A stretch of 53,046 nucleotides of DNA from Patescibacteria group bacterium (GCA_038057405.1 JBBUDH010000005.1:1-53046), one strand, 5' to 3'; shown: positions 2,902-36,077, numbered from the stretch's first letter. Numbers and translations are program-made. The notes: generated by a model not told the origin, from the letters alone.

Positions 2902-3546
2902 TCAATGAACGACAAGCTGTCCTTCGACCGCCCTGATGAAGGTGTCCAGGCCTCTCATCGAGGCCAGGTGCTTCTCGCGATTTTCAATGGTGTCGGTGAC
3001 GAGCCATCCTACCTTCGCGAGGAACGATTGCGCACTGAACGGGTTACTGAATATCTTCTTGACCGTTCTGCCCTTCGCCAGGCGTACCTTGCTACGGATG
3101 GCAATCTCGCGCAGTCCCCGCTCCGTCCGCTCACAGCGGGCGAACCAGTCCCACACGAGGATGTCGCCTTCTCTGGTGAGGAGTAGCTCCTGGCGGTAGA
3201 CGCATCCCTGCTTGCGGGAACGTCGACTCCTTGGCTGCCCCAACCGTTTGAAAGCTGACCTTCTGAACGGGATGCAGAACGAACTGCCGTTATAACCTGC
3301 TGGCAGGTCGTATGTGCGACTTTTGTCGTCGCGATCACGACGCGCCATGCCGTTGTCGTCCATTCGTGCATCTTCCAGATAGTCACCGAACTCAATGAAG
3401 CCGGCGAGGAATTGTAGACTACTGACGCTTGCACCAAGTACTTCCAGCGCCATCACCTCCGCCTGCTTCGGGGTCATCGCCCCTATCTTGACAGGACTGT
3501 TGCCAAACGCGTCCTGAATGCGCTTCAGTCTGATGGACGTATCCAT
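2902..3546 (-). CDS. hypothetical protein (214 aa), no recognisable family
   Basis: Long ORF on the same strand as its neighbours, with its own downstream terminator. The shadow ORFs overlapping it are Arg/Ser-rich and look non-coding. Confidence 0.6.
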   Translation of the reverse strand: MDTSIRLKRIQDAFGNSPVKIGAMTPKQAEVMALEVLGASVSSLQFLAGFIEFGDYLEDARMDDNGMARRDRDDKSRTYDLPAGYNGSSFCIPFRRSAFKRLGQPRSRRSRKQGCVYRQELLLTREGDILVWDWFARCERTERGLREIAIRSKVRLAKGRTVKKIFSNPFSAQSFLAKVGWLVTDTIENREKHLASMRGLDTFIRAVEGQLVVH

Positions 3547-14847: not shown

Positions 14848-14879
14848 AGCGGCGCGGAAAAGAACTTTTCCGCGCCGCT
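14848..14879 (+). terminator. perfect 15-bp stem-loop between cargo C and D (attenuator or terminator-like, no U-tract)
   Basis: AGCGGCGCGGAAAAG-AA-CTTTTCCGCGCCGCT. Confidence 0.45.
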
Positions 14880-16370: not shown

Positions 16371-16399
16371 GGCAGGAACGACTGCCAGTCGTTCCTGCC
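16371..16399 (+). terminator. 13-bp stem-loop after cargo E (attenuator or terminator-like)
   Basis: GGCAGGAACGACT-GCC-AGTCGTTCCTGCC followed by CTTGATTG. Confidence 0.4.
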
Positions 16400-17493: not shown

Positions 17494-17537
17494 AAAGCGG
17501 CGCGGGATTCTATCCCGCGCCGCTTATTCTTTTCCTT
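17494..17537. terminator. rho-independent terminator between cargo F and convergent rplK
   Basis: AAAGCGGCGCGGGA-TTCTA-TCCCGCGCCGCTT followed by ATTCTTTTCCTTTATT. Confidence 0.75.
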
Positions 17538-18555: not shown

Positions 18556-18831
18556 TTATTGCTGCGAGGTCGTCGCGAAGCCCGTAAACTCCAGCGCGGG
18601 ACTTGAGGTCGAGAGCGGCTGCGCGGTGCTTACGGGTTCAACTCCCGGCAACACCAGCAAGAAGCGTGAGAGACCCGTGGTGAAAATGTAATCGAAGAGT
18701 CCGAGATAGAGAGATACACCGACGGAAATAGCGACGACGAGTATCGTGTAGACGATGGTCTGCAAGCGCGTCGGCCATGCGACGTGCCGCAATTCACCCT
18801 GAGTATCTTTGATGTATTGTATGAAGGACAT
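18556..18831 (-). CDS. secE: preprotein translocase subunit SecE with a C-terminal extension
   Basis: ELRHVAWPTRLQTIVYTILVVAISVGVSLYLGLFDYIF, in the canonical position directly upstream of nusG. Confidence 0.85.
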   Translation of the reverse strand: MSFIQYIKDTQGELRHVAWPTRLQTIVYTILVVAISVGVSLYLGLFDYIFTTGLSRFLLVLPGVEPVSTAQPLSTSSPALEFTGFATTSQQ

Positions 18832-18847
18832 AGAGATTATTCAGTCA

Positions 18848-18871
18848 TTTTAAAAACGCCTCTCGGCGTTT
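18848..18871 (-). terminator. small terminator-like hairpin about 20 nt upstream of secE
   Basis: On the minus strand, AAACGCC-GAGA-GGCGTTT is followed by TTAAAATG. Confidence 0.45.
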
Positions 18872-18937
18872 CAGATATAGTATTCCAACGGGTACGGAAG
18901 TCAAGCGACGCATTTCCAGCCGCCAAGTGAGGGGCGG

Positions 18938-19020
18938 TGCATTGCGAGGGTGTCTCGCAGGCCGACGGGCCGAGAGGCAGCGCTGCCGCAGCAGCGGCAG
19001 ACAGCGACCCTCGCAGTGCA
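18938..19020. ncRNA. structured intergenic element, copy A (candidate ncRNA or structured repeat)
   Basis: A 14-bp closing stem (18938-18951 pairs with 19007-19020) encloses two hairpins: GGCC-GACG-GGCC (18960-18971) and CTGCCGC-AGCA-GCGGCAG (18983-19000). It is homologous to copy B at 35601-35696, with compensatory changes. Confidence 0.5.
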
Positions 19021-19032
19021 TTGCCCTGAGCG

Positions 19033-19848
19033 CTATCGTATCTCGTACGTGACCGTCACGTTCGATACAATTTTGTTCTGACCGAGGGCAATTTCGGGAG
19101 ACGGCGGCATCGCGGCATCCGAGGCACCTCCCATACCGAGCGCCATTGTCTTTGCGTAATAAACCCGTCCGTCCCCACCCTCGCTGAAGCCCACGACGCG
19201 CACGATACTTACCCCGAGCGCATCGGCGAGCGCCTCTGCCTTTTCCTTTGCCTTTGCGATGGCTTTGTCGCGCGCCTGTGCGTCTAGCGCATCCTGGTCG
19301 TCTATCGTGAATGAGAGACCGGAAACCGACGACGCGCCTTTCGAACCGACACCCGCGAGCAGGTCGCCCGCCTTCTTCGTGTCGCGCACCTTTACGGTCA
19401 ACGTCTCCGATACTTGGAATCCGCGGAGAACTTGTTTACCCGGCGGGCAGTAGCCTCCCGAGCACACGGTGTTGGTGTAATCGTACTGTGGGTACACGCT
19501 GTAATCGGTAGTCTGAATATCTTTTTCATCGACACCCTGTGACTTCAGATAGGATTTGATGTCGTTGCCCTTCTTGGTCGCGACTTCCTGCGCGGCTTTT
19601 ACGTCTTTTGCTTCTTCCTGCACCGTGACCGAGAACGTCGCGGTGTCGGGCACCGCAAAGACTTCGCCGTCACCCGAGACAGTGATGGTATTCGAAGCGG
19701 CTACACCGCTGCCGATGTAGTGATATTGCTTGAGCGAGGAAATGGTAAGGACAAGCAGAAACAATCCGAGCATGGCGAGGGCAAACATGCCCGCCGTCTG
19801 CATCCGCTGCGGCGGCACGATGTGTATCTCTTTCTTTTCAATATCCAT
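19033..19848 (-). CDS. SIMPL/DUF541-domain periplasmic protein
   Basis: An N-terminal TM/signal anchor is followed by a pattern typical of SIMPL proteins: ITVSGDGEVFAVPDTATFSVTV...AKDVKAAQ...NKIVSNVTVTYEI. Confidence 0.85.
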   Translation of the reverse strand: MDIEKKEIHIVPPQRMQTAGMFALAMLGLFLLVLTISSLKQYHYIGSGVAASNTITVSGDGEVFAVPDTATFSVTVQEEAKDVKAAQEVATKKGNDIKSYLKSQGVDEKDIQTTDYSVYPQYDYTNTVCSGGYCPPGKQVLRGFQVSETLTVKVRDTKKAGDLLAGVGSKGASSVSGLSFTIDDQDALDAQARDKAIAKAKEKAEALADALGVSIVRVVGFSEGGDGRVYYAKTMALGMGGASDAAMPPSPEIALGQNKIVSNVTVTYEIR

Positions 19849-28622: not shown

Positions 28623-28696
28623 GCGCGCTTAGCTCAGTTGGTTAGAGCATCTCATTTACACTGAGAGGGTCGGGGGTTCGAATCCCTCAGCGCGCA
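28623..28696 (+). tRNA. tRNA-Val: tRNA-Val (anticodon TAC)
   Basis: Acceptor GCGCGCT/AGCGCGC, D-arm GCTC-AGTTGGTTA-GAGC, anticodon arm TCTCA-TTTACAC-TGAGA, T-loop GGTTCGAATCC. Confidence 0.9.
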
Positions 28697-28706
28697 CCCA
28701 ATGCAC

Positions 28707-28735
28707 AAAGTGCCCCTTGCGGGCACTTTTGCGTT
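28707..28735 (+). terminator. rho-independent terminator after the tRNA pair
   Basis: AAAGTGCCC-CTTGC-GGGCACTTT followed by TGCGTT. Confidence 0.7.
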
Positions 28736-28776
28736 GGGAGCAGGGATTCGAAGGCCGGAGCGCGTCGGCGCGAGGC

Positions 28777-28834
28777 GGGGTCGCGGGTTTCGCCAACAGG
28801 CAAAAACCTGTGACCGAATCCCTCAGCGCGCACC
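28777..28834 (+). pseudogene. duplicated 3' half of tRNA-Val, interrupted by a 22-nt hairpin insert
   Basis: GGGGTCGCGGGTTTCG, then the insert [CCAACAGGCAAAAACCTGTGAC], then CGAATCCCTCAGCGCGCACC. The last 20 nt (28815-28834) are identical to tRNA-Val positions 28679-28698. Confidence 0.5.
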
Positions 28835-31772: not shown

Positions 31773-32162
31773 CTACTTGGTCCCTCGTGTATCTAAAAAT
31801 CGTTGCAGAATGATGGCGGCGGCGGAGGCATCGTTGTGCTCCTTCCCTTCCGGCGCATAGCGTGAGGCTTCTATCGAGCTCCACATTTCCCATACGCGCT
31901 CGACCGTCGTGGCGAGAGCCTTTTCTAGCGCTACAACAAACGCCTCCGCTTCAGCTGTGACGGGGTTATCTTTTCCCCCGTGCGAGCGTGTATCGCCCAC
32001 GACGATACAGGTGATTTTTTCGTTCTTGACGAGTTCCTCAAGCTGCGAGAAGAGTCGCGCGTCATTCTGCAGGGTCGCCCGCGGAAACGCGATGGTGCCT
32101 GCCGCATCGGATACAGCCACCCCGACGCGTTTCGCTCCATAATCAATACCGAGATACTTCAT
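31773..32162 (-). CDS. ruvX: Holliday-junction resolvase-like nuclease RuvX/YqgF
   Basis: MKYLGIDYGAKRVGVAVSDAAGTIAFP. Confidence 0.9.
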   Translation of the reverse strand: MKYLGIDYGAKRVGVAVSDAAGTIAFPRATLQNDARLFSQLEELVKNEKITCIVVGDTRSHGGKDNPVTAEAEAFVVALEKALATTVERVWEMWSSIEASRYAPEGKEHNDASAAAIILQRFLDTRGTK

Positions 32163-32309
32163 ACCCGGTTAGTAGAATGTGCCTTTGCGGCAGACGGCAT
32201 GCCGTTCTGCCGCGGCGTGGTACATGAGCGCTCGACCGTGGCACTTTGGATACGTTTGTTGTTTGTTTTCATAGGTTGTTTAAGCCGAAGGCACATTGAC
32301 ACTACCGGG

Positions 32310-32717
32310 TCATATGAGTTTGGATGTTTTATATGTTTCCGGCCGGAATGCCTGCAACCTCACCACCTTCGCCTTCACACCCGCATCCGTCAAGTCGCGC
32401 TCAAGCCGGTCGACGAATTCCCCCGATTGATCATATCCGAGCGCGATGATATCAGGCTTCGCATCCGCGATGTGTTCGATGTATCCGTCCTCCTGTCCGA
32501 GAATGACTTCGTCGACGAGCGTATTGCGCGAGAGAAGCGCATGTCGCTCCTTTTCAGACCGTCGCGGCTTGGCGCCTTTGATGCGTGTGACTACATGCTC
32601 CCGCGCGACGGAAACGATAAGGTAGGGGTCGGGAGCAAGAGCGCGGGCTTGGCGGAAAAAATCCACATGGCCCTCATGGACCATATCGAAAGTGCCGAAG
32701 ACCATGATGCGCGTCAT
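32310..32717 (-). CDS. cytidylyl/adenylyltransferase-fold protein (RibL/FMN-adenylyltransferase-like or TagD-like)
   Basis: [17 protein letters not shown] carries the (T/H)xGH nucleotidyltransferase motif. 135 aa. The start overlaps the stop of the upstream TrmB-like gene. Confidence 0.7.
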
Positions 32718-34562: not shown

Positions 34563-35523
34563 ATGAGCGGGTTTCTTCGGTGAGGACTTCTCTATTCACC
34601 CTTGAGAGCATGAGCATTGCCACGAGCAGCAGGATAGTGCCGAGCCATTGGCCTATGTACAGGCCGAAGTAGGTGCCTGCTGCCTGATTGCCGGGAATGA
34701 AATACGCATTGACAAAGACTGCGGCGAGCGGAAAGCCGAGCTCGGCAATCGTTGCGATAGAGGCTTTGGTAAATTGGAGACCGTAGTAGTAGAGGAAGAG
34801 CGAGAAAACGCCCGACGTAAGCGCGACGATGAAGAGGAAGAGAATATCGGTGCCCGTAATAACGCCCGGAGCCGGGAATGTCCCCTGTGCTGCGTTGAGA
34901 ACGATGAGGAAAATGAGTCCGACGATGAAGCGCAGCGACGTGAGCGTCTGGAATGCCGCCGTGCGCAAGACATATTTGCCGAACACGGTCGAAGCACCCC
35001 AAAGCGCCGCGGCGGTGAGCGCCAAGAGCGAACCGATGAGGTTGGGGTTAAAAACTTCTCCCGCATAGAGTTGCGGTACGAGATTCGGGAAGCTCACGAG
35101 GTACGCGGCGCCGAGTGCAACGACGGCCCACATCCAGAAATTCTTGTGCATGCGTTCGCCGAGCATCCACCACGCGAGCGCGATGGCGATGAGGGGCTGG
35201 ATTTTTTGGAGCACGATGGAAACCGACGGATTGACGTAGTGGAAGGATTCGGTAAAGGCCACCGCCGCAAGCGCGGAGCCACAGACACCGATGAAAAGAA
35301 TCGCGAACCATTCGCGGGCGGAGATGTTCTTGAGATTTCCCCAATTGAAAAGTAGGATGGGAATCGCAATAAGGGCAGAGATAACGTGCTCGCCGAGGAC
35401 GATGAAATTGGAGCTGAGCCCCTGTGTGAGATGCGTACGGAAGGGAGCATCCGTCGCCCAGAGTGCTGCAGCGATGAACACGAGTGCGGGGCCAAAAAGT
35501 ACGATGGAGCGGCGCGGTGTCAT
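34561..35523 (-). CDS. EamA/DMT-superfamily transporter
   Basis: Ten predicted TM helices arranged as two EamA-like halves, 320 aa. Confidence 0.85.
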   Translation of the reverse strand: MTPRRSIVLFGPALVFIAAALWATDAPFRTHLTQGLSSNFIVLGEHVISALIAIPILLFNWGNLKNISAREWFAILFIGVCGSALAAVAFTESFHYVNPSVSIVLQKIQPLIAIALAWWMLGERMHKNFWMWAVVALGAAYLVSFPNLVPQLYAGEVFNPNLIGSLLALTAAALWGASTVFGKYVLRTAAFQTLTSLRFIVGLIFLIVLNAAQGTFPAPGVITGTDILFLFIVALTSGVFSLFLYYYGLQFTKASIATIAELGFPLAAVFVNAYFIPGNQAAGTYFGLYIGQWLGTILLLVAMLMLSRVNREVLTEETRS

Positions 35524-35600
35524 GATGAAGGGTATTCTACCCCATTAGAGAGCTTCTTAGAAGCCTCCCGAGCATGTTTGAAAGTGTTTAACCGGAGCAA

Positions 35601-35696
35601 GGGGCGGGCTTCTCCGCGGTCTTCGCAGCCGCGACGGCGGCGAGACTGAGCGCTGCATCAGCAGATGCAGATAGCGACCGTGGAGGAGCCCGCCCC
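35601..35696. ncRNA. structured intergenic element, copy B
   Basis: A 21-bp closing stem (35601-35621 pairs with 35676-35696, including two T-G pairs on the plus strand) encloses two hairpins: GCCGC-GACG-GCGGC (35628-35641) and CTGCATC-AGCA-GATGCAG (35653-35670). Confidence 0.5.
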
Positions 35697-35735
35697 GCGG
35701 TGTAGGTTTTCAAACGTGCTCTAACGGGGCAGGCA

Positions 35736-36077
35736 CTACTTTTTGAAGTATGCTCGCACGGCCGCAACATCCTCCATAATCGCCTCTTTCAAGTCCGTAT
35801 CGTCCGTAAACTTCTTGTTCTCGCGCACCTTTTTCAACAGGTGAATTTTCACATTCCATCCGTAGAGATCTTTGGAAAAGTCCAAGATGTGCGCTTCCAA
35901 GAGTTTGCGCCTCTGGTCGGCAAAGGCGACCGCCTCGTACTCTTCCTCACCCACTTTGACCAACGCCGCATAAATGCCCGACACATCCGTATCCGTGAGC
36001 GGAATATTTATCGTCGGATACCCAAGCGCTGCCGCACGCTTCGAGCCCGTCTCTACGATACCTGTGTACATGCTCAT
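35736..36077 (-). CDS. stand-alone riboflavin kinase domain protein
   Basis: GIVETGSKRAAALGYPTINIPL...GIYAALV...LEAHILDFSKDLYGWNVKIHLLKKVRENKKF matches the RibF C-terminal kinase pattern. The start is trimmed to the ATG at 36077. Confidence 0.75.
   Translation of the reverse strand: MSMYTGIVETGSKRAAALGYPTINIPLTDTDVSGIYAALVKVGEEEYEAVAFADQRRKLLEAHILDFSKDLYGWNVKIHLLKKVRENKKFTDDTDLKEAIMEDVAAVRAYFKK

Follow-up and report, generated by a model that had tools for sequence, protein, structure and literature searches.

A palindromic repeat family of Patescibacteria with a conserved three-way-junction core, and its candidacy as a mobile element

The 53,046-nucleotide stretch of Patescibacteria (CPR) DNA analysed here (the window) carries two copies, A and B, of a palindromic repeat that recurs in frame inside essential genes of other CPR genomes. 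The CPR repeats are a large family of elements of ~95–160 bp, lying within a wider superfamily and specific to Patescibacteria. The family has apparently not been described before; the open-access literature yielded no description of it, which is weak evidence of novelty. A reading of the window by eye (the sequence-only reading) had proposed a novel structured RNA or structured repeat. The repeat half of this proposal held, in that the element is dispersed, multi-copy, and mostly resident in genes; a dedicated RNA gene is less likely, and no plus-strand promoter-like site was found before A or B. A widespread repeat that also lies in frame inside essential genes is most likely mobile DNA rather than a private sRNA gene, and we hold, with somewhat better than even confidence, that A and B represent a non-autonomous palindromic mobile element of CPR, which would propagate as a folded single strand by means of machinery acting in trans.

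Re-reading of the window sequence reproduced the coordinates and sequences of both copies as first given, and both were strictly intergenic, as had been claimed. The pattern CGCAG-N8–16-GAGANNNAGCG occurred exactly twice in the window, compared with 0.05 occurrences expected from shuffles, and a scan of the window with the covariance model R1 found no further strong copy beyond A and B. The copies, which folded at −56.4 kcal/mol (A; z = −6.5 versus shuffled sequence) and −71.5 kcal/mol (B; z = −8.8), have a common architecture consisting of a ~63-nt three-way-junction core and a 21-bp closing stem. The closing stem of copy A had been put at 14 bp; these pairs are present, but reading outward extended the stem to 21 bp (GGGGCGGTGCATTGCGAGGGT / ACCCTCGCAGTGCATTGCCCT, 18931–18951 with 19007–19027), adding three G.T pairs and, at the base, a tandem G.A/A.G (18927–18930 with 19028–19031). 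The base of this stem abuts the SIMPL stop codon (19033–19035). Helix P2 of copy A contains the conserved U.G and one G.A and is followed by a bulged A at 18959, and the internal loops of copy B read CCGGAGCAAG / CGCGGTGTAGG. Copy B has an additional 14-bp outer stem (35570–35583 with 35708–35721) that produces a 152-nt rod (z = −9.2), and this long form, with near-identical arms, was also found at loci L059, L058, L066, and L102. For the whole hairpin of copy A, the predicted fold was −76.1 kcal/mol on the plus strand versus −56.9 kcal/mol on the minus strand, and for the copy B rod the respective values were −92 and −76.9 kcal/mol. The features of the two copies, of a third, weaker element, and of one contextual site are as follows.

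18927..19031, plus strand: copy A, whole hairpin (R1 score, 96.4 bits; inverted repeat I4)
18948–19010, plus strand: copy A, three-way-junction core
18952..18978, plus strand: copy A, arm 1 of the junction, with helix P2 formed by 18952–18958 and 18972–18978
18960–18971, plus strand: copy A, hairpin 1 (GGCC-GACG-GGCC), whose pairs covary in the family
18983..19000, plus strand: copy A, hairpin 2 (CTGCCGC-AGCA-GCGGCAG)
18979–18982 (AGCG) and 19001–19006 (ACAGCG), plus strand: copy A, junction strands flanking hairpin 2
35570..35721, plus strand: copy B, long-form element (R1 score, 66.6 bits)
35601–35621 with 35676–35696, plus strand: copy B, 21-bp stem
35618–35679, plus strand: copy B, core (57-nt variant)
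35628–35641, plus strand: copy B, hairpin 1 (GCCGC-GACG-GCGGC)
35642–35652, plus strand: copy B, junction strand GAGACTGAGCG
35653–35670, plus strand: copy B, hairpin 2 (CTGCATC-AGCA-GATGCAG)
28740..28826, plus strand: probable divergent or decayed third relative with the same three-way topology (R1 score, 10 bits; E = 1.8; inverted repeat I10)
18877..18904, minus strand: promoter-like site TTGACT-16-TACTAT for secE-nusG-rplK (context, outside the element)

Comparison with Rfam 15 at gathering and permissive thresholds provided no match of the copies to a known family. At the gathering thresholds, the whole window contained seven tRNAs only, and permissive scans of both copies returned only Scr6925 (14.8 bits; threshold, 50) and NiCo (19.9 bits; threshold, 64.5). 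The Rfam 15 families rejected as falling below the gathering threshold included the hammerhead, twister, twister-sister, pistol, hatchet, and HDV-like families, and riboswitches, 6S, SRP, tmRNA, and RNase P likewise gave no match at this threshold.

Further copies were abundant in related CPR genomes. When each GTDB species was represented by a single genome and searched for an exact pattern of 22 bases fixed from copies A and B, at least 117 loci matched, and ~110 of the matches listed were true copies, located in Patescibacteria MAGs of at least two classes and often present several times per MAG. The hosts among the matches listed comprised Nomurabacteria, Kaiserbacteria, Saccharibacteria, Paceibacterota, Liptonbacteria, and Minisyncoccia. 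Seven matches in non-CPR genomes showed odd spacing and no fold and were set aside as chance. Across 111 copies, the length had its mode at 110–118 nt and the arms measured 20–35 bp.

We aligned the 111 copies and counted base pairs for a three-way-junction model. In this model, P1 is the closing stem, P2 consists of S-U-C-U-C-G-C with G-A-G-A-G-N-S' and is followed by a bulged A and then hairpin 1 (4 bp, GNCG loop), and hairpin 2 (7 bp, AGCA/ANYA loop) is accompanied by the junction strands AGCG and ACAGCG. Paired cells amounted to 90.4% in the 111 copies, compared with 72.8% in shuffles and 36–47% when the partners were slid. The covariation score was 0.42 versus 0.11, with none of 500 shuffles scoring as high, and the fold with compensatory helix changes first noticed between A and B was thus borne out by copies from other genomes. 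The outermost P2 pair (col11–col38) was G:C in 57 copies, C:G in 54, and unpaired in none. Hairpin 2 showed changes on both sides in five of its seven pairs, with 98.6% of cells paired and an ANYA loop in nearly all copies, and RNAalifold independently recovered P1, both hairpins, and a short P3. The search pattern itself imposed conservation at 22 core positions; it left free the positions that covary and a number of invariant ones, such as C-U/A-G at the base of hairpin 2.

At orthologous sites, identity was 82–92% in the core versus 69–78% in the flanking housekeeping coding DNA and 60–80% in the arms, in a sample ascertained by a pattern that itself fixes 22 core bases. A core better conserved than its flanking coding sequence is unusual for junk and counts against a mobile element; as judged from the sequences, it would fit recent spread together with selection on the fold during propagation, or a host function. 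As one rival reading, the core (+) strand would give rise to a structured RNA useful to the host, either a small RNA or a module bound by a conserved CPR protein, with the arms as a processing stem (e.g., for RNase III) and the junction as the functional part. The invariant junction and loop nucleotides with covarying stems are a classic functional-RNA signature, hairpin 1 tolerates a large insertion in the manner of a variable RNA stem, and the conservation of the core relative to flanking essential genes and a G.U asymmetry favouring one strand whatever the host gene orientation agree with such an RNA. We nevertheless consider a host-useful RNA unlikely, given that most copies are inside ORFs, often in sense, that no promoter appears to travel with the element, and that copy number and location resemble those of a repeat rather than a gene. 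Moreover, presence and absence vary among near-identical hosts, so that no given copy is needed.

To quantify the asymmetry between strands, we matched each 5' arm to its complemented 3' partner under equal penalties for every kind of mismatch. The closing stems yielded 2784 Watson–Crick pairs and, as read on the core strand, 127 G.T versus 32 A.C mismatches (p = 1e-14), and the remark that all wobbles of the window copies were T–G on the plus strand thereby generalised to the family. The G.T : A.C counts were 34:6 in copies antisense to the host ORF, 61:7 in intergenic copies (24:5, 6:1, 8:0, and 23:1 by orientation class), and weaker, at 32:19, in copies sense to the host ORF. Wobbles in the core pointed likewise, with U.G in 70 of 111 copies, and the variation in A(C/T)AGCGACC corresponded to a G:C / G.U pair (101 versus 10). 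The core (+) strand was the more stable one in 105 of 111 copies with RNA parameters, and results were similar with DNA parameters. These sequence comparisons support the view that the structure is selected on the core (+) strand. As the G.T bias is indifferent to the orientation of neighbouring genes, the folded strand does not appear to follow the host mRNA. The earlier inference in favour of the plus strand therefore stands for folding but not for an sRNA gene: no plus-strand promoter-like site was found and relatives lack copy A, so that a dedicated antisense sRNA gene is not the best reading.

A strand-specific fold that ignores gene orientation would also suit a host signal at the DNA level, that is, a structured site, single-stranded or cruciform, that serves to prime replication, to promote recombination or DNA uptake, or to organise the nucleoid and is tolerated anywhere in the chromosome. 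G.T is the least harmful mismatch in a DNA hairpin, the greater stability of the plus strand extends to DNA parameters, and copies are spread over the chromosome, coding regions included. Such a signal is distinctly unlikely, however, because no single site is conserved among close relatives, nothing ties the copies to replication features, and there are just two good copies in 53 kb; furthermore, known uptake, Chi, and parS signals are much simpler than a 63-nt three-way junction.

Next, we considered the genomic surroundings of A and B. The genes beside both copies are all on the minus strand: copy A is flanked by SIMPL/DUF541 and secE-nusG-rplK and lies 6 nt from a stop codon, and copy B is flanked by genes for riboflavin kinase and an EamA transporter and lies 39 nt from a stop codon. 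No plus-strand promoter-like (sigma-70-like) site was found before A or B, although CPR promoters may differ. In relatives whose SIMPL is at least 90% identical, the position of copy A is occupied by an unrelated spacer of ~275 nt, and the 5' hairpin and the secE promoter-like site, which lies between copy A and secE, are kept. In the window (18847–18904, minus strand), this site precedes the hairpin GAAACGCCGAGAGGCGTTTTT, which lies immediately before the start of secE; both are kept in relatives L128, L130, and L131, and the segment is possibly a secE-nusG promoter with a leader or attenuator hairpin. The unrelated SIMPL–secE spacer of L128 (2320–2600) ends in a GC hairpin and a T-run, and L128 also has a 141-nt secE–nusG spacer (2992–3132) that is absent from the window; the sole Rfam match in these L128 spacers was a weak group I intron (16.7 bits), which is probably chance. 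At the position of copy B, a Kaiserbacteria relative carries two genes, ribE and ribH, flanked by those for the flavokinase and EamA. In the corresponding segment of this relative (L132 440–1496 versus window 35524–35735), the products are riboflavin synthase (Lum_binding) and DMRL synthase; ribE and ribH were either lost from the window genome or never present in it, and copy B is there instead.

The location of intergenic copies, A and B included, just downstream of stop codons would agree with a transcription terminator or a stabiliser of the mRNA 3' end of the upstream gene. We regard this as highly improbable. No T-run follows A or B on either strand, no terminator-like site was called in 18700–19150 or 35400–35850, and an intrinsic terminator was accordingly rejected for both copies. 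The ordinary terminator-like hairpins of the window are simple with short loops (14848–14879, 17495–17525), and the relatives without copy A end their spacer with the plain GC hairpin and T-run. In addition, selection usually bears on the strand antisense to the upstream gene, and 60% of the copies are inside ORFs, where termination would be lethal. The window contains perfect 14–15-bp GC-rich hairpins with 1–3-nt loops at 14848–14879, 16371–16399, and 17495–17525, which are ordinary terminator-like or REP-like hairpins quite unlike the palindromic element. Two nested or adjacent imperfect inverted repeats were also seen at 32086–32310, with 21–23-nt arms that are 79 and 102 nt apart; these overlap predicted ORFs and had no Rfam match even at E = 1.

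The third element of the window (28740–28826) folded at −48.4 kcal/mol on the plus strand versus −39.3 kcal/mol on the minus strand and has AGCGCGTCGGCGCGAG in common with the cores of L068 and L054. On the basis of its sequence, it is a probable divergent or decayed relative of the family and a weak lead. Its 3' arm is contained in a direct 21-nt copy of the tRNA-Val 3' terminus. In the surrounding segment (28678–28834), the tRNA-Val 3' end (CGAATCCCTCAGCGCGCACC) is directly repeated ~137 nt downstream, with a simple hairpin (28709–28731) and the three-way hairpin lying between the repeats; the arrangement resembles an att-like scar of small size or else an insertion at the tRNA.

Residence within genes was the prevailing situation in the family. 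Long ORFs contained 67 of the 111 copies (60%), 41 in sense and 26 in antisense, all of them in frame and stop-free. The host genes encode PcrA/UvrD (two sites), TsaD, Tgt, RecG, UvrB, Def (peptide deformylase), Fmt, MetK, IleRS, DnaE, and a pseudouridine synthase. The core consensus, as read from the sequence, is free of stop codons in all six frames. Nearly all forward copies nevertheless use the frame reading GVSQADGPRGSA..DSDP and all reverse copies use the frame reading GSLS..ALPLGSSACETP, over ~20 different host sites in total, and the frames used encode linkers rich in Gly, Ser, Pro, and Asp. Such skewed use despite six open frames points to selection on the encoded linker and argues that the inserts are translated. 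Persistence in genes would follow from an element that lacks stops in every frame and whose product is a flexible and harmless linker. No frame-breaking copies posing as intergenic were found. Of the 44 copies not located in ORFs, most terminate within about −5 to +20 nt of a stop codon, more often that of an opposite-strand gene, and copy A conforms to this. The ORFs on either side of intergenic copies that share a strand are whole genes in their own right (ABC ATPase/ABC-2 permease, MurG/FtsW, Asd/homoserine dehydrogenase, and a protein of no assigned function/TIM), and split genes, which would be a sign of splicing, were looked for and not seen.

Removal from RNA by an intron-like process would leave the in-gene copies absent from the final protein, with the long stem joining the ends and the junction serving as a small ribozyme or as a recruiter of cleavage and ligation (e.g., an endonuclease together with RtcB). 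CPR rRNA genes are known for unusual insertions, and this precedent counts for an intron-like element, as do the sites in essential genes (PcrA, TsaD, Def, Fmt, MetK, IleRS, DnaE), a very stable hairpin (−55 to −75 kcal/mol) in the path of the ribosomes, which would need to unwind it, and a core whose size and conservation pattern are as in small ribozymes. However, all 67 in-gene copies are in frame and stop-free with a preferred frame per orientation, which would be needless if they were spliced, antisense copies put the reverse complement into the mRNA without the selected fold, and no known ribozyme class matches. An intron-like element is thus very unlikely.

Other marks of a mobile repeat came from comparisons among copies. 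Paralogous copies within one MAG have common arms, sharp ends (AGCGAG...CGAGCG), and unrelated flanks. Both ends of this sharp-ended subfamily carry GCGAG, which may represent a specific target that was duplicated or else a tandem-G.A motif of structural origin; direct repeats beyond GCGAG were not seen at the sharp-ended copies, and no target-site duplication could be defined from them, which counts against a mobile element. A few copies are decayed, and one has an insertion of ~95 nt in hairpin 1. At L039 (299–618), two copies lie head to head 75 nt apart, and the second is the one with the ~95-nt insert; the insert itself holds an AGCA-loop hairpin, and this copy is possibly a nested insertion. 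Three independent assemblies of the same strain as the window (L118–L120) end contigs within the core of copy A (window 18977–19004), and hence short-read assemblies of such genomes are interrupted by the repeat. That the strain might also have an empty allele at this position was considered and rejected, as these assemblies are otherwise identical and simply broken within the core.

To follow the fate of one site, we compared the segment YPGG...PRPM in 120 close TsaD orthologues, retrieved with a query stripped of the insert. The segment was empty (25–34 aa) in ~32 of the 120, carried the A/B family in ~38, in the forward, reverse, or third frame, and carried other inserts of similar length in ~50; the A/B family and its relatives thus fill this loop in about three quarters of the orthologues. 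R1 recognised three of the five representatives of the other inserts searched (families a, b, and c) at 27–35 bits, and these three possess CGCAG, hairpin 1, GAG.., hairpin 2 (with a CAGCAG loop), and ..GCGACCC. The same architecture and the R1 scores of families a–c indicate that the A/B family forms a single branch within a superfamily. The TsaD loop (L123–L127; P0001–P0120) is occupied by no fewer than five further insert families, with peptides reading GLRRAAGPRTEQIFQQKN.., GRNFSAEKFTQSSGRRPAE.., ERSIAQAGEPSIAKNQQIF.., LGRSDGDGQRKFSAENF.., and NFSGPRFSGSLSQPDHEK.., and tandem double inserts were observed in TsaD proteins P0044, P0033, and P0111.

The state of the TsaD site was almost independent of the host protein tree, with the nearest neighbour sharing the same state in 29 of 120 cases versus 21 expected. 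Furthermore, one empty allele (P0002) and one carrying family b (P0003) are 95–98% identical in DNA across genes and flanks and differ by a replaced patch (~55 versus ~130 nt), with no clean insertion. Near-independence from the tree and this near-isogenic pair imply that turnover is fast, and it proceeds by insertion and excision, by recombinational exchange of short patches, or by both. The replaced patch counts against a mobile element, in that allele exchange by homologous recombination could explain part of the patchiness without transposition. The arms may possibly be an inverted copy of the adjacent target made at insertion: the upstream arm at TsaD is homologous to the empty-allele sequence, the TsaD insert measures only ~84–96 nt, roughly the core plus one arm, and the 3' arm of the weak third element of the window is the duplicate of the tRNA-Val 3' end. 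By contrast, unrelated copies share arms within subfamilies (e.g., B and L059; three copies in one MAG), the empty alleles could be one-arm footprints, and the near-isogenic pair differs by a replaced patch.

Taken together, these data are best accommodated, in our view, by the non-autonomous mobile element, which we would picture as follows. Self-complementary arms of 20–35 bp, which evolve fast, close a conserved ~63-nt three-way junction, and the family would spread and turn over as mobile DNA. The step that selects on sequence would act on one folded single strand, the core (+) strand, in the form of ssDNA or an RNA copy, and an enzyme supplied in trans would recognise the fold. Copies would survive only where they do little harm, namely a few bases past stop codons or in protein surface loops. 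Two null results weigh against this picture: no transposase, reverse transcriptase, or other partner gene was recurrent within ~4 kb of ~110 copies, and the pattern was absent from 2.9 million viral contigs, so that no phage vector was seen. The recurrent neighbours of the copies were housekeeping genes, and a MITE with an autonomous partner was rejected as no transposase-like ORF family recurred near the copies. A bolder and rather doubtful reading is that the junction is itself an active nucleic-acid machine, either a new small ribozyme or the RNA or ssDNA partner of an unrecognised CPR enzyme, that drives its own insertion, excision, or replacement; it would act at hairpin-prone sites, possibly with adjacent target sequence copied into the second arm. 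If this were true, the family would constitute a new class of mobile elements colonising essential genes across a bacterial superphylum.

CPR/Patescibacteria account for a large share of bacterial diversity and have tiny genomes, and every repeat they retain therefore needs explaining. The CPR repeat would inflate and diversify essential proteins, breaks assemblies, and will confuse gene callers and alignments. If it is mobile via a folded single strand, it points to a novel mobilising activity in organisms that are hard to culture, and if it is an RNA or ribozyme, it would be among the most widespread undescribed structured nucleic acids in bacteria. The covariance model R1 also provides a compact, highly conserved marker for CPR DNA in metagenomes.

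Among known systems, the nearest kind is the Rickettsia palindromic element (RPE), reportedly described by Ogata and colleagues in 2000, to which we liken the CPR repeat by behaviour and not by sequence. Both are short palindromes of ~100–150 bp present in many copies (111 copies here), which are intergenic, as are A and B themselves, or lie in frame in conserved genes. In the CPR repeat, the in-gene copies are stop-free in either orientation; both elements occur in either orientation, are apparently translated as additional loops, have no identified transposase, and reside in host-dependent bacteria with small genomes. In contrast to RPE, the CPR repeat has a conserved three-way-junction centre with variable arms, a core nearly identical across class-level lineages, and strand-specific G.U selection on the fold. 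Homology to RPE is not expected, because the hosts belong to a different phylum.

The REP/REPIN elements resemble the CPR repeat as non-autonomous hairpin repeats that lie behind stop codons in either orientation, presumably act in a folded, single-stranded form, and persist over the long term with compensatory change. REPINs are extragenic and have conserved REP arms, a variable spacer, a GTAG/CGTC head, and a RAYT gene (Y1 HUH), and none of these REPIN-specific features was seen in the CPR repeat; a REP/REPIN–RAYT system was rejected because the arms vary, the centre is conserved, and no Y1 transposase was among the recurrent neighbours. ERIC/IRU and Correia (NEMIS) elements are likewise dispersed imperfect palindromes of ~100–150 bp that vary among strains and share transcripts with the genes next to them, and conservation of ERIC exceeds that of the adjacent sequence. 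ERIC and Correia elements, however, have defined terminal inverted repeats, TA duplications (Correia), and an essentially intergenic location, whereas the CPR repeat combines a conserved junction core with frequent ORF residence, and no duplication of the target could be defined for it.

The GC clusters, double-hairpin elements, and "byp" elements of yeast mitochondria are, as the CPR repeat would be, GC-rich mobile hairpins that invade coding regions and reside in AT-richer small genomes. The byps, which are eukaryotic and organellar, are bypassed by the ribosome and need not keep the frame, whereas the CPR repeat keeps the frame and shows frame choice. Integron attC sites share with the CPR repeat an imperfect palindrome in which structure is conserved over stem sequence. 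They act as a single folded strand of DNA, as the CPR repeat may, and their variable terminal structure can branch. However, attC sites carry R/L boxes (RYYYAAC / GTTRRRY) at the stem base and form cassette arrays beside an integrase, whereas the CPR repeat has a conserved tip and no array, integrase, or GTTRRRY core site; attC was rejected here because the stem bases read GGGG.../...CCCC or AGCGAG/CGAGCG and the copies are solitary. The CPR repeat differs from all these known kinds in its conserved structured centre with variable arms, its near-identical core across the superphylum, and its strand-specific selection on the fold.
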